DNA of 64,000 bases from an uncultured Verrucomicrobiae bacterium (GCA_963735805.1 CAVTMK010000001.1:256001-320000), one strand, 5' to 3'. Counted from the first letter of the stretch, positions 2,880 through 20,253 are shown. Made by a program: numbers and translations. The notes: generated by a model from the letters alone, not told the origin.

Positions 2880-5435
2880 ATGCCGACTTTTCAAACGTAT
2901 AACGTCACTCCAATCCTGCCAGGGGCGCTTGAGCCGTTGCGCGAGATGAGTTTCAACTTGTGGTGGACTTGGGAACCGGCTGCGCGCCGGCTGTTTCGCC
3001 ATTTGGATCCCGAGCTTTGGAACCGGACCAATCACAATCCCGTCCGAATGCTTCAGCTTTCGCGGCAATCCAGACTGGAAGAACTTGCACAGGACAAAAC
3101 TTTCCTGCGCGAGCTGAAACAGGTCTTCGAGGAATTCGAAAAATATCTCGGACGCCACGACACTTATGGAAAGGCGGGAGCCGCCAGCGCGATCAAGAAT
3201 CCGATCGCTTATTTTTCGGCCGAATTTGGTTTTCACGAGTCGATCCCGAATTATTCCGGCGGTCTCGGGATACTCGCTGGCGATCATTGCAAGTCAGCGA
3301 GCGATCTGGATTTGAATTTTGTTGCGATTGGTCTGCTCTATCGACACGGCTATTTCCGGCAGCAAATAGATAAGGACGGCGTTCAGGCAGCGATCAATCT
3401 GAATCAAAATTTTTATCATCTGCCGATCCGAGAAGCCCTGCGTAGTAATGGAAAACCGCTTATTTCCGTACCCATTCTGGATCGCCAGGTTTTTGCCAGA
3501 CTTTGGGAATTACGTGTCGGAAGAGTGAGCCTCTATTTGCTCGACACTGATATTCCGGAAAACAGCGCAGAAGACCGATTGATCACTGCCGAGCTTTATG
3601 GCGGCGACCTCGAAATGCGGATGCGCCAGGAGATCATGCTCGGAATTGGCGGCGTCAAAGCGCTCGCTGCGCTCGGCATTCAGCCATCTGTGTTCCACAT
3701 GAACGAGGGTCACTCGGCGTTTCTGGCGCTCGAACGCATTCGTCTCAATGTCGCGGAGAAGAAGCTCGATTTTTATTCGGCACTTCAGCTAGTAGCGGCC
3801 GCCAATGTCTTCACCACGCACACTCCGGTTCCCGCCGGCAACGATTCGTTCCCGCGCGAGATGATGCGGAAATATTTCGGGAATTTTGCCAAGGAATTAA
3901 GCATTCCCTTCGATGAGTTGTTCTCGTTCGGTCAGACGCGCATCGATCCAAACGATCCTTTTAGCATGACCATCCTGGCGCTGCGTCTCAGCCGACAGGC
4001 AAATGGGGTAAGCAAATTGCACGGTGAGGTCACGCGGTCGCTTTGGAAAGATGTCTGGGCCGGCGTGCCGGTCCAAGAAGTGCCCATTACCAACATCACA
4101 AACGGTGTGCATACCAAGACCTGGATGGCGCCGGAGTTTGCCGCACTTTATCGCAAGCATCTGGGTGCATGGGAGGAACACCTGGCCGAGCCGGAGTTCT
4201 GGCGGGGCGTCATCGATATTCCCGACGCCCAACTTTGGGACACGCATCAAAAACTCAAGCTCCGCCTGATCGAATTTGTGCGCGACCGGGAACGACGGCG
4301 CCGCGAACGAATGGGGGAATCGCCCGAGTCCATTCGCAAGGTCAACCGCATTCTTGATCCCGAAATTTTGACAATCGGTTTTGCGCGCCGTTTCGCGACT
4401 TACAAGCGGGGCACGCTTCTATTTAGCGACAAGGAACGCTTGAAACGATTGCTGAACGACGCCACGCGGCCGGTGCAATTTATTTTTGCAGGCAAAGCGC
4501 ATCCACGTGATGAAGCTGGCAAGGCGTTGATCCAGGAAGTCTACAAACTTAGCCACGAAGCTGGCCTGGAAAATCGCATCGTCTTTCTGGAGGACTACGA
4601 TAGCTACATCGCACGGCGCCTGGTGCAGGGTGTCGATCTTTGGCTAAACCATCCCCTGCGCCCCCTGGAGGCGAGCGGAACCAGCGGGATGAAAGCTGCT
4701 CCCAACGGCGGAATCAATCTGAGCGTGCTCGATGGTTGGTGGCGGGAAGGTTACAACGGCAGTAACGGCTGGGCTATCGGCGCGGAAATCAATGATGGTA
4801 CCACGGAATTTCAAAATGAAGTAGACGCCAGCAGTCTTTACCAATTGTTGGAGAACCAAATTGTTCCGCTCTATTACGCAAAGCCGGATGGCAAACTTCC
4901 CCTGGCCTGGTTACAACTGATGCGTGAATCGATCCGCAGCGTCACGCCCGTCTTCAACACACAGCGGATGGTGAAGGAATACACCGAGCAACTTTATATC
5001 CCGGCTGCGAACTCGTATGAGAATTTTTCCTCCGACGGTTGCGGCGCCGCGACACACCTGAGCCGGTGGAAAACGCAAATGCGCAAGGATTGGCCAGCGG
5101 TAAAGATTTCGGACGTTCAGATCGGAAACAAAGATCGACAAAGCATTTTGGTCGGTGAATCGCTGCACGTCACAGCGCGAGTTCATCTCGGGACGGTCGA
5201 TCCACAGCATGTGCGAGTGGAAGCGTACCACGGCGAGGTGGACAATGGTGACATTCGCAATCCTTCGGCGACCGTTCTCAATCAGACCGGACGCGCAGAC
5301 GGAGACGGCAATTACGTCTACCAAGGAGCAGTTCCTGCGTCGGAAAGCGGTACCTACGGCTTTAGCGTGCGCGTCGTGCCAACGCATCCCTGTCTGATGC
5401 AGATGCACGAATTGCGCCTGATCACCTGGTCGTGA
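2880..5435 (+). CDS. glgP: Alpha-glucan (glycogen) phosphorylase
   Basis: YSGGLGILAGD, HMNEGH, GFARRFATYKR and PLP site EASGTSGMK; ATG at 2880 preferred over TTG at 2817. Confidence 0.97.
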   Translation: MPTFQTYNVTPILPGALEPLREMSFNLWWTWEPAARRLFRHLDPELWNRTNHNPVRMLQLSRQSRLEELAQDKTFLRELKQVFEEFEKYLGRHDTYGKAGAASAIKNPIAYFSAEFGFHESIPNYSGGLGILAGDHCKSASDLDLNFVAIGLLYRHGYFRQQIDKDGVQAAINLNQNFYHLPIREALRSNGKPLISVPILDRQVFARLWELRVGRVSLYLLDTDIPENSAEDRLITAELYGGDLEMRMRQEIMLGIGGVKALAALGIQPSVFHMNEGHSAFLALERIRLNVAEKKLDFYSALQLVAAANVFTTHTPVPAGNDSFPREMMRKYFGNFAKELSIPFDELFSFGQTRIDPNDPFSMTILALRLSRQANGVSKLHGEVTRSLWKDVWAGVPVQEVPITNITNGVHTKTWMAPEFAALYRKHLGAWEEHLAEPEFWRGVIDIPDAQLWDTHQKLKLRLIEFVRDRERRRRERMGESPESIRKVNRILDPEILTIGFARRFATYKRGTLLFSDKERLKRLLNDATRPVQFIFAGKAHPRDEAGKALIQEVYKLSHEAGLENRIVFLEDYDSYIARRLVQGVDLWLNHPLRPLEASGTSGMKAAPNGGINLSVLDGWWREGYNGSNGWAIGAEINDGTTEFQNEVDASSLYQLLENQIVPLYYAKPDGKLPLAWLQLMRESIRSVTPVFNTQRMVKEYTEQLYIPAANSYENFSSDGCGAATHLSRWKTQMRKDWPAVKISDVQIGNKDRQSILVGESLHVTARVHLGTVDPQHVRVEAYHGEVDNGDIRNPSATVLNQTGRADGDGNYVYQGAVPASESGTYGFSVRVVPTHPCLMQMHELRLITWS

Positions 5436-5534
5436 TCACGCTCAACGACTGCGGTCCAATTGGGACATCCAAGCAAAATTTTCAAACCGCCCAGGCAGAA
5501 GCAAAATCGCCTGCGTATTCTAACAGTTGTATAT

Positions 5535-6467
5535 TCATAGGCCTCGCGCCGGAGGCGTAACCCCTAGGCACGCAACGATCGTCACCACTGCCACGGCGAG
5601 GCAGGTCTCGCCGATCACATTGCGACGAAGCTGAGCCAGAAAATCCGCGGTTTCGGAAACTCTAGTCAACCTTGTTTTGATGACGAATCGATTCCGCGCG
5701 CCCAGGCAGACGAGAATGCCGAATGCCGTGAGCTTGGCAAGTAAGAGCCAGCCGTAACGTGTCGTGAGCAACGCGTGGATCGAACCGACCAACAACCAGG
5801 AGTTGGAAATACCGGTAGCAACAAGAACACCCACGCAAGTCACGCTGAGCGTGGAAAAACGCTGGAGTACGGGCAGAGTCTGTTCGCCTAACGACGACGA
5901 TGCGCGGGCGCGCGTCAGAAAAATGGCCAGTGGCAGAAGTCCGCCGATCCAGATACTCGCCGCACAAAGATGGAGCGCATCACCTAAAACACCGAGCGGT
6001 TGCACGCTGGCAGCTGCGGCATGGCTGACCCAGGCGAGCGAAATGAGTAAAAGAACGCTAATCAAAAACACAGCCATGTTCAGCGCGTGTCGTGCTCGAG
6101 CTCGTGCCAAGCCGAGCGCGATTAGTGCAAACGCCAAGGCGATCAATTCCAGGCGAAGCTGCCAGACGCGACCGAAGTTTGTTTCAAACAAAACCGTCTG
6201 CCACGCTGCGACAGAAAAGGCACGCATGAGCGGCAATCCGTTCATGTTCGCGACTTCCAGCCAAAACCAAAGCAGCGCGGACAAAAGAGCCGCGACGAGA
6301 CTCCATCGAAGTAGGCGGAGCAAACGCCCGTGGACCTCGCGAAAATCGTCCCCCCCGGCCCGCCCCGCCGGACCAAGCGTGATCACTTCGAACGTACACG
6401 TCCCAACCAGCAGCATCGACGCGCCAATGTGCACGGTGCGAGCGATAATGAGCAGCGTGATAAGCAT
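5535..6467 (-). CDS. copD: Copper transport membrane protein CopD
   Basis: Multi-TM protein; SHAAA, LHLCAASIWIGGL, RFS, YGWLLLAK motifs; directly downstream of copC. Confidence 0.9.
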   Translation of the reverse strand: MLITLLIIARTVHIGASMLLVGTCTFEVITLGPAGRAGGDDFREVHGRLLRLLRWSLVAALLSALLWFWLEVANMNGLPLMRAFSVAAWQTVLFETNFGRVWQLRLELIALAFALIALGLARARARHALNMAVFLISVLLLISLAWVSHAAAASVQPLGVLGDALHLCAASIWIGGLLPLAIFLTRARASSSLGEQTLPVLQRFSTLSVTCVGVLVATGISNSWLLVGSIHALLTTRYGWLLLAKLTAFGILVCLGARNRFVIKTRLTRVSETADFLAQLRRNVIGETCLAVAVVTIVACLGVTPPARGL

Positions 6468-6491
6468 CGAGCGTCCTCTACGTAAGAATGC

Positions 6492-6851
6492 CTAACGAGT
6501 TACCCGGAATGTGAAACTTCCATTGGTCACGTGCGTATCGACAGAAACCACGCGCCAGGCGACTTTGTAGATTCCCGCTGGGAGCCGCGGCAGAGAAACG
6601 TGCAACAGCCCGTGATCGGAGCGATCCAAGTGTACATCGCGTTTATCCATTTCCTTTCCAGACGCGTCGAATACCTGGATGCTACTGAAGGCTGGCTCGA
6701 CGTTTTCCGTAAATCGGATTCGCACCTCACTGGGCGACGTTTGAACCGTGCTACCCGCACTCGGCTGTGCGTCCCTGAGAAAGGCATGCGCTTCAACTTG
6801 CGCCGTGGCTGCCAAAATGATCAGAGATAAACTGACAACCGTGCGCTTCAC
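6492..6851 (-). CDS. copC: Periplasmic copper-binding protein CopC
   Basis: Signal peptide ending AEA-like before mature N-terminal His (HAFL); WRVVSVDTHVTNG Cu(II) site. Confidence 0.95.
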   Translation of the reverse strand: MKRTVVSLSLIILAATAQVEAHAFLRDAQPSAGSTVQTSPSEVRIRFTENVEPAFSSIQVFDASGKEMDKRDVHLDRSDHGLLHVSLPRLPAGIYKVAWRVVSVDTHVTNGSFTFRVTR

Positions 6852-7810
6852 TTGGTTCCTCCAAACAGGGGACGACCAATGCTGTGTGGAAAAAGATCGT
6901 CCACAAAGAAATGTAGTTGTGCAATCACGCCGACGTTAGTTCCCGTCCGTTCGTTGATTGGAACAACCGCCTCCACACCAACCTGGAAATATTGGCCAGC
7001 CCAGATAACGCCGGGATTGATTGTTCCGGTGGTTTGGCCTCGCTCCCCTCGGTTGAGCGGAGTTTCCAGTGCGAATTCCACCAGCGGAATCAAGCGATTA
7101 ATCGGCGCCGGCAAGTGCAGGTCCTGCACTTGCGACTGAAGATAGATAACGCTGTACTCCAGAGCAAAGCCCCATTCTAAGACGTCGGGATTTCGATCGA
7201 TCTCGACCTCGCGTTCCCCCGTCTCGTCATTCACCGTGACGCTGCGCGTGCTCGCGCTCGTTGGAATCTCAATTCCGGCCAATCCGGTAATGGCGAACGG
7301 CTTGAGGAACCGCAATCTCTCGGGCAAATCGCCGAAGCCCTTACCGAAAAAAATTCCTGGCTCCCATGTAGTGAACGAGTCCGCGTCAACTGAGCTCGAT
7401 CCAGTGCCGCCAACTTCAACACCAAGCCCCAACGAGACGATCGCTTCATGCGCGTCATTCTTCAGGATCTGATATTTGCCACCCAATTCCAAGTTGCCGA
7501 AGCCATTTGTCGCGCGTTCTTCATGTGGATTCAGCGCCGTAAAAGTATCACCGACTTCGATCGCAAATTCTGGGGTGATTCGCTTGGAGATATCTATGGA
7601 GATATCCGTTTCGCGCGTTCCGCCGTCATCCAGCGTTCTAATGCTGCTTACGGTTGGAAGCGAAAGCTCATCGGAGACAAACGGATCATCGGTTGAAAGC
7701 GTCGCGGGGAAAAATCGCGCGCCGGCAAAGCCATGGCCATACGCCTGGCTCGTTGCGCCGAGCTCATATGCCGCACAGACGAGCCAAAAGATTAAAGATA
7801 AATGTTTCAT
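6848..7810 (-). CDS. Putative outer-membrane beta-barrel associated with copper uptake
   Basis: Signal peptide, mature N-terminal His (HGFAGARFFPATLSTDDPFV), amphipathic beta-strands; stop overlaps copC start; SD AAGGAGG. Confidence 0.65.
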   Translation of the reverse strand: MKHLSLIFWLVCAAYELGATSQAYGHGFAGARFFPATLSTDDPFVSDELSLPTVSSIRTLDDGGTRETDISIDISKRITPEFAIEVGDTFTALNPHEERATNGFGNLELGGKYQILKNDAHEAIVSLGLGVEVGGTGSSSVDADSFTTWEPGIFFGKGFGDLPERLRFLKPFAITGLAGIEIPTSASTRSVTVNDETGEREVEIDRNPDVLEWGFALEYSVIYLQSQVQDLHLPAPINRLIPLVEFALETPLNRGERGQTTGTINPGVIWAGQYFQVGVEAVVPINERTGTNVGVIAQLHFFVDDLFPHSIGRPLFGGTK

Positions 7811-15021: not shown

Positions 15022-15465
15022 ATGCGAAAATATACCTTTAGCCTGACGATCCTAACTCTCATCATGTCGTGTGCGCTTGCGTTCAGTGCATCTGATACTC
15101 CAGAAACCCGACGTCGAGAAGCCGAGCGCTATCTACAAGCTACCCCACCCAAAGCGTTGTTCGAAGACATGGCCGACAAGATGGCTGCGAACCTTCCCTC
15201 TGACCAACGCGATCAATTCAAGAAATTAATGACTTCGCAGCTCGACATCGCCGCACTGACGAAAGCGATGATTGACGCCATGGTGAAACATTTCACCACT
15301 GAAGAATTGAAGGCATTGGCAGATTTTTATGGTTCTCCGGTTGGGAAATCCGCGATGCAAAAGTTCGGTGCTTATATGGCGGACATCATGCCGACGATGG
15401 AAGCCGAGATCATGAAAGCGCAGGCGAAGATGAATCAGTCGCTACCCAATTCATCACCGAAGTAG
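15022..15465 (+). CDS. DUF2059 domain secreted protein
   Basis: Signal peptide; KHFTTEELKALADFYGSPVGK. Confidence 0.85.
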   Translation: MRKYTFSLTILTLIMSCALAFSASDTPETRRREAERYLQATPPKALFEDMADKMAANLPSDQRDQFKKLMTSQLDIAALTKAMIDAMVKHFTTEELKALADFYGSPVGKSAMQKFGAYMADIMPTMEAEIMKAQAKMNQSLPNSSPK

Positions 15466-15524
15466 ATCAGACCATTTGAAGTAGGCCGCGTCGGCCATGG
15501 CGAACCCGTTGACTCGCCATTTCG

Positions 15525-15578
15525 CCGAGGGACGCGCCGTAAAGGATTTTGTGCAAGCTCACGGCGCGAACCCCGGCG
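15525..15578. terminator. GC-rich hairpin between convergent genes
   Basis: CGCCGAGGGACGCGCCGT ... ACGGCGCGAACCCCGGCG imperfect inverted repeat. Confidence 0.45.
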
Positions 15579-15612
15579 CGTCCTGGATTTTCTTGATTGA
15601 TCTGTGCTCGCT

Positions 15613-17898
15613 CTAATGCCGACGTCGATAGTTAATCGACCAGTTTTGCTGCTGAACGTTCGGAACCGGCGTGCCGGTTGCTGCGTCGTAGATGGAACGC
15701 GAGAAGAAAATCACTTGGTTCCCAGTGTTGTCCGGATCAAAGAATGGATCGCCCGGAGGCACGGGGATATCGAATTCCTCATCGCCTGAAGTAGTCAGAT
15801 CGAGATCGTGATCAATGAATTGGCCCCAGCCGTAAGTCCAATCCGAAAGATTGCGTGCGTCGGGCAGGCTTTGGTCGCCTTGATCGACAACGCTGTTACT
15901 AATGAAACGCGCACTGGGACGGGTCGCGCCCGCCGGCGACGACAATGAATCGCCATAGGCGGCCGAGACGAACCGCATGAGGTCCGAGCCCGCTGCGCCC
16001 CAGAACCGATGCGAGTTATTGTTTCCTACCCCGTCGATTGGCGCCGGATTGAATTGGGTGACATGGGCGCCGATCAACGCCGGAGGAAGAAATCCCGGCC
16101 GTGGCTGCAATCCTTGCAGCGTTGTGTCATCAAAGAAGAAAACGTTGTCCTGAATCTTCGTGAGGACGGTGTTGCGCCGAATGATGTCGGAAAGCCGCGT
16201 TTGCTGGAGCGCCTGCAGTTGTGTGCCGAAAAAAACTCGCTGATACCAGAAGCGGTCTCCGTCACGAACACGCTCGAATTGGTTCGCGATAATTCTCCGG
16301 AAGGTAGGACCGACGCTGCCGCCGGGAACATGATCTTCGGCAAGGCCGCCGATCCAAAGATCGATCGAATCGACATTTCCATAAAGCTGGAACAACTTCG
16401 CCTGAAGATCGGGATCGCTCGTAATCTGACTGAAATTCGTGACGCGCGGCAGCCCAAATGCGGCGCGCGTGCTGTTATAGTCCGCAAGCCCATGGTCGCG
16501 GCCGCGCTGAATATTCAGGGAGGCTAGATCAAAACCACCCGCGCCAGGAGGCCCAAACAAGAAATTACGCAGGTCGCCAACTATTTTTGTATCAACCGCC
16601 TGGGCATTGTCGGTTGCGAGATATTTGAGGATCGGGTCCGGACCGGTTTCCTTCAGCGGATCAGGATTAAAGAACGCGTCATCCAGATCAAGCTCTTCGC
16701 GGATGGGATTGCCTTCGTTGTCTAGAAACTCGACATCGTCATTGACGAGCGTATGGCCAATACGATAAGCCGCAGTCGAGAACTCAGTCGCGATTCCGGA
16801 ATTCACGTTATCCTTATACCCAGAATATGCCCGCAAGGCGTTCGGTCCGAGCAGCGCCGGAAGAAACTCGCGATAAGTAATCACCTGCAGTTCGCCGGCG
16901 ACGATTCGTCGCGTCATTTGGAAAATCTTTTCGTCGTTTAACGAATGATTGGCCGCGGCGATAGCGGCGGCTATTTGATTGTGTTCCCGCACAAACAGCG
17001 CCTGAATGGCGGTCAGTTCGACATTCTCGTTCGACCGCACATCTCCGCACAAAAACAATTCGTTATCGGGAACTCGATGCGCGTCGTTTGCGTTTGGCAG
17101 GCCGTTAACGTTGAGCGGAGGCAGATTGCCAGTACTCGTTTTCAGAGCTCCGCCTTGAAACGTGCGCAGGGCAGCAGTACGTCCCGCGTCGGAACCATAA
17201 ACAACCGAACCATCAAGATACGCCGTAATCTGACTGACTTGTTGCCGTGGATTCGACTCACTCGCCCGCAATTGAAAGCTATTGGTTCCCTGGTGCAGGT
17301 TCACTGGGACACTAAAGTTTCCTGCCAAATCCAGCGGCACTGGCGAACCGTTTATCGAAAAGGAAATCATCCATGGCGCACAAATGTCGTCCGTAACCGT
17401 GCCCCGCAAAACAATGCTTTGCGAAGTGACCGTGCTTCCGTTCGGTGGGTTCAGATTGGCGAACTCACCCGAAGTATTCTCCGTATTCGGGCTCCGGATT
17501 TCTTGAACACTCGAATTGATTCTCGGCCCGGCTGCCTGCCCGTTGCGATTGCGAATTTGCCGCTCCGCCACCCAGCCATCCAAGCCATCGTCAAACCGGA
17601 CCTTCCACCACCAAACATCAGCAGAGCGCACGGGACCTTCTGTGATTGCGCCTTGAAGCCCGACCGGTTCAGTCGTGATGAACTGGCCGGCGAATGGCGG
17701 CGCTAAAAATATTGCGCTTTGACTAATTGTCCGCACTTGTTCGCCGATGTAAAACGGCGAGGCGGCGGCAGCACCCTGGCTTCGTCCGTTGATCCCGCAA
17801 CAGATCAGAACTAACAGCAGGGAGGCATACCAGTGCCTGAACCGAATGAACGTGATGTTTTCAAAGAACCAAATGAGGTTGAGAGTATTGGTTTTCAT
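15613..17898 (-). CDS. Secreted heme peroxidase (peroxidase-cyclooxygenase superfamily), circularly permuted, with SH3b-like and Ig-like domains
   Basis: ITAYLDGSVVYGS, GDVRSNE, REHN, AYRIGH, NIQRGRDHGL, RDGDRFW; the normally N-terminal IDGVGNN...WGQFIDHD...FFSRS block lies at the C-terminus. Confidence 0.92.
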   Translation of the reverse strand: MKTNTLNLIWFFENITFIRFRHWYASLLLVLICCGINGRSQGAAAASPFYIGEQVRTISQSAIFLAPPFAGQFITTEPVGLQGAITEGPVRSADVWWWKVRFDDGLDGWVAERQIRNRNGQAAGPRINSSVQEIRSPNTENTSGEFANLNPPNGSTVTSQSIVLRGTVTDDICAPWMISFSINGSPVPLDLAGNFSVPVNLHQGTNSFQLRASESNPRQQVSQITAYLDGSVVYGSDAGRTAALRTFQGGALKTSTGNLPPLNVNGLPNANDAHRVPDNELFLCGDVRSNENVELTAIQALFVREHNQIAAAIAAANHSLNDEKIFQMTRRIVAGELQVITYREFLPALLGPNALRAYSGYKDNVNSGIATEFSTAAYRIGHTLVNDDVEFLDNEGNPIREELDLDDAFFNPDPLKETGPDPILKYLATDNAQAVDTKIVGDLRNFLFGPPGAGGFDLASLNIQRGRDHGLADYNSTRAAFGLPRVTNFSQITSDPDLQAKLFQLYGNVDSIDLWIGGLAEDHVPGGSVGPTFRRIIANQFERVRDGDRFWYQRVFFGTQLQALQQTRLSDIIRRNTVLTKIQDNVFFFDDTTLQGLQPRPGFLPPALIGAHVTQFNPAPIDGVGNNNSHRFWGAAGSDLMRFVSAAYGDSLSSPAGATRPSARFISNSVVDQGDQSLPDARNLSDWTYGWGQFIDHDLDLTTSGDEEFDIPVPPGDPFFDPDNTGNQVIFFSRSIYDAATGTPVPNVQQQNWSINYRRRH

Positions 17899-18193: not shown

Positions 18194-19288
18194 GTGATAA
18201 AATTCTTTCGACCCATTCGGCCCTTGGTTTGCGGCTGGTTTCTCTCTTTCGCCGGCTGGGGTTTGGTCGCGTTTGTTCTCGGAGTAAACTTTGTCGGCAG
18301 CACAGATATTCCATGGACTCGCGCGCTTCACGCGGCGATTCGCGATCAATTGCCATGGGCAGTGCTGACTCCGTTGATCTTCCGATTCGCCACGCGCCAC
18401 CTGATCGATCATGCGAACTGGAAAAGGAATCTAGTACTGCAATTGATGACCGGCATCGTGGTGATCTGGGGAATCCACCAATGGAAACTTCTCATCGACC
18501 CGAATGGACCAGGCCCACACCATCGGCGGCCCATCTCTGCAAGAGATTTCGGCGGATCCGCAGGTCCGCAATTGGCAGCGCCACCGCCAGCCTGGGATTT
18601 TTTCCACTTCGCGAGTGTCGAAATTCCAATTTACCTCATGATCATTAGCGCCGCCCACACCTTGCATTTTTATCGGCGCGCCGAAATGCGATCCGGCCAG
18701 CTCGCCCGCGCGCGATTACACGCGCTGCAAACGCAGATTCATCCGCATTTTCTTTTTAATACGTTAAACACCATCGCGGGACTCATTCACAAGGCTCCGG
18801 ACAAAGCCGAGGTCGTCGTGCAGATGCTTGGCGATTTATTGCACTTCCTGCTAAGGGCGAATCCCGAGTCGGAGGTTCCATTGGAACGGGAAATTGAGTT
18901 CGTCGAAAAATATCTCGCCATCATGCACGTCCGCTTTGATAATCGCGTCCGGTACGAGTTCCAGATCGCGCCCGAGACTCTGGCCGCATCCGTTCCTGCC
19001 TTGCTTCTCCAGCCGATTGTCGAGAACGCAATCAAGCACGGTCTCGAACCCAAGCCGCGGGGTGGCAAGATCACCATCCAAGCGCAGCGCGACATGAGTT
19101 TTCTTCACCTTCGAGTCTCGGACACCGGTGTGGGCATCCGCAATTTGGAGAACGTCGAAGAGGGCATCGGTCTGACCAGCACGCGCGCGCGATTGCAGGA
19201 ATTGTATGGCGATGCCGCTTCGCTGGAGATTTTCAGTGACGGCGGGACCACTGTGTTAATCGAGATTCCATTTCGCCTGACCGCATGA
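18194..19288 (+). CDS. LytS/YehU-family membrane sensor histidine kinase
   Basis: QIHPHFLFNTLN H-box, LLQPIVENAIKHG, DTGVG, GIGL. Confidence 0.93.
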   Translation: MIKFFRPIRPLVCGWFLSFAGWGLVAFVLGVNFVGSTDIPWTRALHAAIRDQLPWAVLTPLIFRFATRHLIDHANWKRNLVLQLMTGIVVIWGIHQWKLLIDPNGPGPHHRRPISARDFGGSAGPQLAAPPPAWDFFHFASVEIPIYLMIISAAHTLHFYRRAEMRSGQLARARLHALQTQIHPHFLFNTLNTIAGLIHKAPDKAEVVVQMLGDLLHFLLRANPESEVPLEREIEFVEKYLAIMHVRFDNRVRYEFQIAPETLAASVPALLLQPIVENAIKHGLEPKPRGGKITIQAQRDMSFLHLRVSDTGVGIRNLENVEEGIGLTSTRARLQELYGDAASLEIFSDGGTTVLIEIPFRLTA

Positions 19289-19482
19289 GACTCGCCTCGC
19301 CTGCGAACGTTTTCAGAGGTCGAATTGAAAAAAGATTTCACGTGAACACTGTTGAAATCATTGTTCCGATACTTAAGGTTCGCTGATCGTCGATTGTCAG
19401 CATATGCTGACATGGGCGTCGTCGAGTCCCGGTCGGTGCGCCATATAGTCGTAAAATCAGTGCGGGCGAATAGGGAGGAACA

Positions 19483-20253
19483 ATGGCAACTCTGGAAAAT
19501 AGGACAAGCCTGGGAGAGCGACTGATCCAGCAGGCGCTGCGCGTCCTGATTGTCGATGACGAACGAATCGCGCGACAGCGCCTACGGTGGCTGCTGGAGA
19601 AAGAACAAAACGTTGAAGTCGCAGGCGAATGCAGCGACGGCGGGTCGGTCCTGAGCGCCGTGCAAGAACATCGGCCCGATCTCGTGCTGCTCGACATTAA
19701 GATGCCGGACATGAATGGCTTCGACGTCATTCATGCGCTCGAACCATGCGACCGACCAGCAATTGTCTTTGTCACTGCTTTCGACAAGCACGCCGTTCAC
19801 GCTTTTGAAACATGTGCGCTCGACTATCTGCTCAAGCCGGTCGCCGCCCCGCGCTTGGAAAAGACCCTTATGCGGGTCCGGGACTATTTGCGCTCAACCG
19901 GATCGACGCCGTCACCACTTACACTTAGCGCAAACCGTCGCTTCAGCGTTCGCTGTGGATACCGCACCACATTTATCACGCCTGAGCAGATCGACTGGAT
20001 CGAGGCCAGTGGCAATTACGCAATTCTTCACGTGAACGCGCAAAACCACTTGCTTCGCGAAACAATGGCCCGTCTCGAATCCCTGCTACCGTCCGGCGGC
20101 TTCATGCGCGTTAGCCGCTCCGCCATCGTCCGTCTCAGTCGCGTTAAAGAAATTCAAACTACGCCCACAGGCCATCACTTCGCCGTATTGCGTAGCGGCA
20201 TGCACGTGTGCGTGACCAAGAGCATTCGCGAAGTCGCCGCCCGCCTGCACTGA
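19483..20253 (+). CDS. LytTR-family response regulator
   Basis: REC domain (IVDDE, LLDIKMP, DYLLKP) plus LytTR domain (IDWIEASGNY, FMRVSRSAIV). Confidence 0.94.
   Translation: MATLENRTSLGERLIQQALRVLIVDDERIARQRLRWLLEKEQNVEVAGECSDGGSVLSAVQEHRPDLVLLDIKMPDMNGFDVIHALEPCDRPAIVFVTAFDKHAVHAFETCALDYLLKPVAAPRLEKTLMRVRDYLRSTGSTPSPLTLSANRRFSVRCGYRTTFITPEQIDWIEASGNYAILHVNAQNHLLRETMARLESLLPSGGFMRVSRSAIVRLSRVKEIQTTPTGHHFAVLRSGMHVCVTKSIREVAARLH

Follow-up and report, generated by a model that had tools for sequence, protein, structure and literature searches.

A circularly permuted heme peroxidase, probably inserted in an Ig-like domain, in an uncultured soil Verrucomicrobiae bacterium

Within a window of 64,000 nucleotides (the whole stretch of DNA that was analysed) from an uncultured soil Verrucomicrobiae bacterium, a single unbroken reading frame on the minus strand (15613..17898) encodes a protein of 761 aa. 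It is best explained, with a probability of roughly 0.8, as an exported, lactoperoxidase-like heme peroxidase that is circularly permuted and placed within the hairpin between strands F and G of an Ig-like domain. All sequence features tested assign the protein to the peroxidase-cyclooxygenase superfamily, with a topology unlike that of all solved members.

A Pfam search of the 761-aa protein returned PF03098 with a profile score of 507 bits (curated cut-off 25), split into two stretches: aa 213-587 correspond to profile positions 141-530 and the C-terminal 148 aa to positions 4-142, so that the segment order is reversed. The same reversed stretches were obtained in a genome scan, in which this was the sole PF03098 gene found in that genome. 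An earlier note on this DNA had described one reading frame with the PF03098 halves reversed and had proposed a Pfam search, which agrees with it. The best solved match of the protein is CyanoPOX (8S6C, E 7e-163), where aa 217-597 align with chain residues 132-515 and aa 620-743 with residues 5-129. The opening lies between 8S6C residues 129 and 132, and the peroxidase domain is therefore complete, with nothing lost. This alignment also confirms the note's reading that a natural permutation has its opening point between FxRS and RQQ. The canonical order of distal helix, RQQ/Ca loop and proximal His is not that of the window protein, in which the segments are swapped. The residue numbers given in the note (P217, R288, E291, H382 and I621, the last at nt 16038) were all correct on translation. 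A linker between the old C-terminus and the old N-terminus is present as described; its length, put at ~30 aa, is about 33 residues (32-43 across 155 permuted rows). The note thus had the permuted peroxidase right but overlooked the Ig-like host domain closed by the C-terminal tail. The gene is laid out as follows.

15613..17898, minus strand: whole gene, 761 aa, with the predicted layout signal peptide - SH3b - Ig(A-F) - permuted heme peroxidase - Ig(G)
17770..17898, minus strand: probable Sec-type signal peptide, aa 1 to about 43 (hydropathy, pLDDT < 50)
17539..17757, minus strand: SH3b-like domain, aa 48-120 (structure search, weak Pfam SH3_3)
17254..17469, minus strand: Ig-like host domain, strands A-F, aa 144-215 (Pfam Big_7 and Glucodextran_B; structure search)
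16129..17253, minus strand: peroxidase segment C, normally C-terminal, aa 216-590 (alignment to CyanoPOX)
16039..16128, minus strand: linker from the old C-terminus to the old N-terminus, aa 591-620 (alignment; pLDDT 77-92; dN/dS 0.08-0.25)
15664..16038, minus strand: peroxidase segments A+B, normally N-terminal, aa 621-745 (alignment to CyanoPOX; Pfam)
15616..15663, minus strand: C-terminal tail, aa 746-761, putative strand G of the Ig domain (AF2 model, structure search, profiles)

For sorting, three segments were distinguished: A, up to the distal DHD; B, the FxIxVPxGDP..RS piece; and C, from RQQ on. Residue roles were assigned by alignment to CyanoPOX. Segment C holds the Ca ligands T225/Y227/D229/S231, distal R288, ester E291, R379, proximal H382, N462 and R465, and segments A+B hold distal Q693, ester D696, distal H697 and the Ca ligand D698, followed by FxIxVPxGDP..FxRS. 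The distal signature G-Q-x-x-D-H-D is found at aa 692-698. Conservation was determined on 101 of 121 proteins, with near-duplicates, fragments and the tandem protein P0114 left out. Q693, D696, H697, R288, E291, R379, H382, N462, R465, D229, S231 and D436 are kept in 101/101 aligned rows, as is N292, and D698 in 100/101; the R-x-x-E motif (R288, E291) and proximal H382 with its Asn partner N462 are accordingly invariant (101/101). These residues map onto the CyanoPOX residues named in the available part of PMC11776367 and onto the superfamily signatures in that of PMC4420034. In the distal Ca2+ site, D698 and T225/Y227/D229/S231 correspond to CyanoPOX D82/T140/W142/D144/S146, and a 231-698 contact is predicted. 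The catalytic, heme-ester and Ca residues, which the note had reported as all retained, are also conserved across the aligned family. Both peroxidase segments gave dN/dS values of 0.03-0.11 against the close homologues L004, L005, L033 and L006; a fifth comparison was partly saturated. It is nearly certain that the permuted family is real and under purifying selection, and judging from conservation, selection and the characterised homologue CyanoPOX the enzyme is highly likely to be active.

The swapped order was found in 119 of the best 120 of 6731 homologous clusters, answering a search for homologues with the same permutation that had been suggested before; the exception, P0114, is a tandem double peroxidase. 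Among 80 GTDB loci, 26 were permuted, 52 canonical in one frame and 2 broken or partial. All permuted GTDB loci come from MAGs, labelled mostly Verrucomicrobiota, with holders in Ca. Udaeobacter (89% identity), Spartobacteria, Akkermansiaceae, Verrucomicrobiaceae and Opitutaceae; single permuted records are labelled Omnitrophota, Planctomycetales and Pseudomonadota. The gene is patchy: 9/301 genomes of the window's family carry it, two of them frameshifted (L010, L012), and about 45 further genomes of that family have strong matches, of which the 22 read show the canonical order. In the ESM Atlas, only the family's own cluster was seen, with 56 members and an automatic name.

A FastTree phylogeny of segment C, built on 106 of 442 rows after removal of near-copies, places all permuted rows (24/24) on one branch side with a support of 99, nested among canonical planctomycete enzymes. 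An IQ-TREE run agrees with this placement (38 rows chosen after FastTree; LG+G4, quick tree, midpoint root). One candidate for a further permutation, G017 (match 219-697), proved canonical once its whole sequence was read. Across the 26 permuted loci no conserved operon or H2O2 source was found, as only the gene itself recurs in more than five. Given this patchy occurrence and the lack of conserved neighbours, nothing points to a particular H2O2 source or pathway. A LytS/LytTR pair adjoins the permuted gene in close relatives, and the canonical peroxidase in G017.

The region upstream of the peroxidase, aa 144-215, matches Pfam Big_7 (E 1.9e-6) and positions 7-67 of the 83 in Glucodextran_B, ending short of the last strand. 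The AF2 model of the protein (pLDDT 82, pTM 0.84) has a strand at aa 747-757, within the C-terminal tail. Segment C of the model superimposes on 8S6C with Z 29.1 and rmsd 2.0 (381 aligned, 54% identity), segments A+B lying outside this superposition, as Foldseek and VIA-align are sequential and align one segment per run. The model range 144-761 was matched to the whole Ig/FN3-type domain 3pe9_A (84/90 residues, Z 7.1, rmsd 3.1) and to 6tn6_A 402-494 (83 aligned, Z 8.8, rmsd 2.5), Z values of 7-9 being in the range that the structure-search tool calls common. Since these matches are longer than aa 144-215 can supply, tail residues would contribute to the Ig domain; in the model, the Big_7/Glucodextran_B-type beta-sandwich is complete only with the C-terminal tail included.

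A G-strand profile was derived from 89 distinct repeats among 144 intact Ig repeats gathered from 21 proteins. The tails of permuted proteins fit it in the same register in 74/106 cases, with a mean of 1.8 bits vs -3.8 for shuffled tails; 39/106 beat 95% of their shuffles and 67/106, several of them close to the window protein, lie below this bar individually. In a two-chain fold of aa 144-600 with aa 615-761, heme and calcium, the score was 0.95 vs 0.00 for the best of three controls, although similar complexes are already solved and the peroxidase part of this score may come from likeness to them. Contacts agreed to at least 98%, with a partner pLDDT of at least 93; the mark applied is reached by 116/157 solved pairs and 2/215 mismatched pairs. 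The predicted contacts link 231/232 with 697/698, and Ig aa 144-216 with the partner interface 741-760. Thus, in the models, the C-terminal distal helix docks back into the pocket, as had been anticipated, and the heme pocket forms while the Ig domain closes. The structure matches, the G-strand fit of the tails and the two-chain contacts combined support a model in which an Ig-like domain of ~85 aa carries the permuted peroxidase of ~530 aa in its F-G hairpin and has the tail as its last strand. Two permuted proteins lack the G-strand signal: L055 stands behind a complete Ig domain, and L059 is without Ig. Together with the 67/106 tails below the shuffle bar, they indicate that the permuted fold can do without insertion.

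A second permuted family was found through P0181, a protein of yet another order among the matches, which seeded a further search. This family comprises 39 proteins in the order B-C-A, including those of Blastopirellula retiformator, J2-11 and JC732 (Planctomycetota), with the opening directly after the distal helix. The ester Asp is lost in at least 13/39. Upstream of segment B lies half a CarboxypepD_reg domain (Pfam profile 2-46 of 82); flanks were aligned for 35/39 proteins, P0251, P0266, P0271 and P0273 being excluded as their flanks differ. The model range 19-651 of P0244 matches the transthyretin-like 9hfj_A (78/80 residues, Z 10.1, rmsd 2.3) and 5aq0_B (79/82 residues, Z 9.8, rmsd 2.0), and since whole transthyretin-like domains are matched, the second family would also be an insert. 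It occupies one branch side in the FastTree phylogeny of segment C (20 rows, support 99). One origin for both permuted families was considered and rejected, as a joint clade has a p-AU of 0.023 in the 38-row IQ-TREE analysis and the cut sites differ. By these sequence comparisons, the second family arose independently of the window's.

For the window's family we suggest, less firmly than for its architecture, a single event in an ancestor close to the canonical planctomycete enzymes. In this event, the turn of an Ig hairpin would have given way to a fragment, a little longer than one unit, of a head-to-tail (tandem or circular) copy, and the permutation itself would have rendered the peroxidase domain insertable. 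According to the available part of PMC13114784, inserted domains require close termini; opening a surface loop supplies these, whereas the native ends need a linker of 24-43 residues. We tentatively extend this, at somewhat less than even odds, to the view that the animal-type heme peroxidase domain of PVC bacteria is an insertable cassette. At least twice and independently, a head-to-tail copy (from a tandem or circular DNA intermediate) would have been permuted and inserted in frame into a small beta-sandwich in a single step, with a different surface loop opened each time and a short terminal redundancy left behind, the split host clamping the new termini and coupling enzyme folding to the surface-display stalk.

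A two-step history seems to us rather doubtful: duplication and end-trimming would first have produced a free permuted peroxidase, with the Ig domain fused later, the tail recruited as strand G and the permutation a tolerated accident. It would follow the usual route of permutation, duplication and truncation (PMC13552848, available in part), and tandem doubles do exist, 45 plus one triple among the matches listed; the known tandems sit elsewhere in the tree, however. L059, permuted without Ig, and L055, behind a complete Ig, would fit such a history, yet both group with P0104 (support 90-94), whose layout includes Ig(A-F) and whose tail is strand-like, so that the Ig state lies on both sides of that split. 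The tails themselves point both ways. In a profile comparison of 115 tails with those canonical rows whose loop is equally long (39 of 114), positions 6-10 agree better with the NPRQQ continuation of canonical enzymes (0.7 bits, shuffled -10.7) than with the Ig turn (-2.2, shuffled -6.8), whereas positions 11-16 fit the Ig strand (3.2 bits, shuffled -5.8) better than the peroxidase (-4.6, shuffled -9.3). In the window protein, the residues ahead of strand G may be a second NPRQQ motif in decay, and the tail end is basic. NPRQQ-like positions 6-10 suggest terminal redundancy, as duplication would leave; this degenerate five-residue redundancy hints weakly at a head-to-tail template. That the second family is likewise an insert also speaks against a late fusion.

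Further candidates for a precursor gave the following results. Tandem Bacteroidota peroxidases as the direct source are ruled out by identity (about 49%) and tree placement, and no tandem sister of the permuted clade was found in the segment C tree. A canonical enzyme with an inserted Ig domain as intermediate was discarded, the 169 canonical rows having no gap of more than 12 (A-B) or more than 4 (B-C) residues. An empty SH3b-Ig host gene was found neither among the best 150 of 878 representatives nor, with this query, in 401 genomes of the phylum.

The protein is probably exported by a Sec-type signal peptide, with a hydrophobic core from aa 26 and a pLDDT below 50 over aa 1-43 in the AF2 model. 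Of the secretion claimed in the earlier note, the N-terminal hydrophobic stretch fits and export itself is read from hydropathy. A hydrophobic 11-mer (mean KD of at least 2.0) lies near the N-terminus in 85/114 Met-starting permuted proteins, and a Tat-like motif in 0/114, the window protein included in having no twin-arginine motif. No outer sorting tail was seen by Pfam in the window protein; at least two basic residues occur within the last 8 aa in 108/114 permuted proteins. The domain behind the signal peptide (aa 48-120) matches endolysin 4krt_B (Z 9.0, rmsd 2.2, 65 aligned) and autolysin 5jqc_A (Z 8.8), as well as KOW/Tudor-type barrels besides several SH3b/GW domains (Z 8-9). Its Pfam SH3_3 match is weak (E 0.049, below cut-off). 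Homologous repeats were found on SH3_3-bearing proteins, some with glucosaminidase/amidase/NlpC domains. This predicted SH3b-like domain, which is missing from part of the permuted family, would probably bind the cell wall.

The proposed enzyme would bind heme b and calcium and sit, outside the cytoplasm, on an Ig stalk behind the putative wall-binding SH3b domain, which would tether it at peptidoglycan, its own or a competitor's. Its new termini would be neighbours in the surface loop that precedes RQQ and run on directly into strands F and G of the Ig domain; the C-terminal segment would return to give the distal helix (Q693, D696, H697), and calcium (D698 with T225/Y227/D229/S231) and heme would clamp the two swapped segments together. 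H2O2 would convert it to Compound I, which could oxidise iodide, thiocyanate and small phenolics, removing peroxide and/or producing antimicrobial oxidants near peptidoglycan. In myeloperoxidase, a Met follows the ester Glu, and its counterpart in the window protein is Asn292. With no Met after E291, a myeloperoxidase-type sulfonium link would not form, and the Asn argues against strong chlorination.

Judging from its homologues, a wall-bound, lactoperoxidase-like iodide/thiocyanate peroxidase is the most likely function. The same architecture might instead work chiefly as a one-electron peroxidase on phenolics, humics and Mn(II), or, with non-covalent heme b, as a sink for peroxide in the periplasm, which we consider unlikely. 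CyanoPOX oxidises 2,6-DMP, guaiacol and ABTS, but iodide is its best substrate, and it is the closest characterised homologue (PMC11776367, as far as available). The bacterial homologue RbMPO shows catalase and classical peroxidase side activities and is reported to accept chloride (available part of PMC10204396). Neither an outer sorting tail (Pfam) nor an H2O2-producing neighbour (26 loci) was seen, in keeping with this alternative, while the invariant distal Gln, linked to halide binding in the available part of PMC4420034, and both invariant ester residues argue against it. Covalent heme is possible, though not assured, in the window protein: the kept Asp and Glu are no guarantee because CyanoPOX, with both ester residues, was crystallised with non-covalent heme (PMC11776367, same part).

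At the level of the DNA, one contig of run X2 covers 15343-16920 across the linker junction with 2 differences and another covers 17024-17372 across the Ig/peroxidase junction with 0 differences, run X2 and the best holder coming from one study and being not fully independent. Both junctions, for which spanning reads had been proposed as a check, are thus bridged, and no joints are listed at the locus in 4/4 runs. RNA support is negligible (two 151-nt pieces, run X18). An assembly artefact or a recent gene scramble yielding a dead protein is extremely improbable: two family members are frameshifted, but the same order recurs in 119/120 best homologue clusters from five data sources, contigs bridge both junctions and dN/dS is 0.03-0.11.

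No permuted PF03098 protein was found described in the literature among the top matches listed, which cover subscription journals thinly. The string 'permut' has zero occurrences in the available part of the superfamily review PMC4420034, and 'peroxidase' has zero in that of the main text of the 2026 permutation survey PMC13552848 and no match in three supplementary tables of PMC13114784, which may use numeric family ids. The two families would represent circular permutants, natural and under selection, of a large enzyme fold with covalent heme, of which we found none in print. Sequential profile and structure searches mislabel such proteins as ordinary or fragmented. As two independent cases, they make the link between permutation and insertion testable, and they provide a ready template for engineering bacterial peroxidases that are single-chain, split or switchable.

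Compared with known systems, the window enzyme is closest to CyanoPOX (8S6C), whose heme-pocket and both calcium-site residues, as given in the available part of PMC11776367, have counterparts here; CyanoPOX differs in its canonical order and in being a single domain with a PEP-CTERM tail and no linker, Ig or SH3b. Dictyostelium DdPoxA (6ERC), lactoperoxidase, myeloperoxidase and eosinophil peroxidase share the fold and motifs. In the last two, the light chain is the counterpart of aa 620-703 of the window protein, and both enzymes tolerate a proteolytic backbone break between light and heavy chain (PMC10679500, available in part). Located in the loop that follows the distal helix, this break precedes the opening in the window protein by about 45 residues and matches the opening of the second family. 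Two tolerated opening points are thereby mapped, one of them the unexplained light/heavy-chain cleavage loop of myeloperoxidase and eosinophil peroxidase, which mammals cut with a protease in the case of myeloperoxidase. Myeloperoxidase has a Met sulfonium link (same part of PMC10679500), where the window protein has Asn292 (101/101 rows).

The canonical short peroxidases of Planctomycetota and Verrucomicrobiota (L058, L060; RbMPO, PMC10204396) are nearest in the tree, with segment C up to 70% identical, and differ in their order A-B-C, in accessory domains placed at the ends and in having no insert at either junction (169 rows). Tandem doubles with a T9SS tail (Bacteroidota, P0114 family) and long peroxicins hold the C-to-N junction on which a duplication route depends (PMC4420034, in part), but in the Bacteroidota tandems both domains are complete, the spacer is ~12 aa, the tree position is separate and identity is about 49%. 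Long peroxicins and MopA-type proteins are described in the same source as very long reading frames with duplicated domains and repeated Ca-binding (PERCAL, hemolysin-type) motifs, whereas the window protein has 761 aa, one peroxidase domain and no such Pfam match. Permuted inserted domains are known among PDZ domains and RNA polymerase inserts (available parts of PMC13552848 and PMC13114784), so that permutation and insertion do co-occur. The median insert length is 115 residues, and in 77% of events the host exceeds its insert in size (PMC13114784, as available). In contrast, the modelled arrangement places a cofactor enzyme of ~530 residues in a host of ~85, the insert being six times as large as the host, which contradicts the usual size rule of domain insertion and suggests that a large enzyme fold can be opened, rejoined and relocated as an insert.

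Nearly all of the permuted proteins (108 of 114, comprising the window protein and its homologues) end in a short basic tail, encoded at 15616-15640 in the window, that is often rich in proline and possibly serves as a sorting or binding signal. Four permuted members from outside Verrucomicrobiota show other layouts:

L055 (GTDB locus), 379-2532, permuted peroxidase
L059 (GTDB locus), 5809-7686, permuted peroxidase
P0104, homologous protein, permuted
P0364, homologous protein, permuted

Among these four, a complete Ig domain in front, no Ig domain, or a second SH3b domain after the tail was observed, and their linker sequences differ. Frameshifts interrupt the permuted genes at loci L010 (genome G254) and L012 (genome G005), reflecting either sequencing error or pseudogenes.

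A two-component gene pair recurs next to peroxidase genes:

Window, 18194-20253 (+), LytS/LytTR two-component pair, divergent from the peroxidase gene
L113 (locus), 4270-6119, LytS/LytTR two-component pair

A divergent LytS/LytTR pair also lies next to the permuted peroxidase in close relatives, and in genome G017 a 59-61% identical pair adjoins a canonical peroxidase as well as a protein resembling, by eye, vanadium haloperoxidase/PAP2. At five of the 26 loci (L035, L036, L037, L039, L053), a gene judged by eye to be ECF sigma factor-like is divergent from the permuted peroxidase.

Tandem double heme peroxidases, with one triple among them, form a further family (P0114, P0122-P0165) in Bacteroidota (Saprospiraceae where named); they carry a T9SS tail, and a spacer of ~12 residues separates the peroxidases.

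A second circular permutation, with the canonical segment order A-B-C changed to B-C-A, was found in 39 proteins (P0181, P0241-P0295), at least 13 of which lack the ester Asp. Its carriers are large surface proteins of Planctomycetota, including cultured Blastopirellula strains, in which the peroxidase is inserted in a CarboxypepD_reg/transthyretin-like domain (e.g., P0244, aa 19-651).
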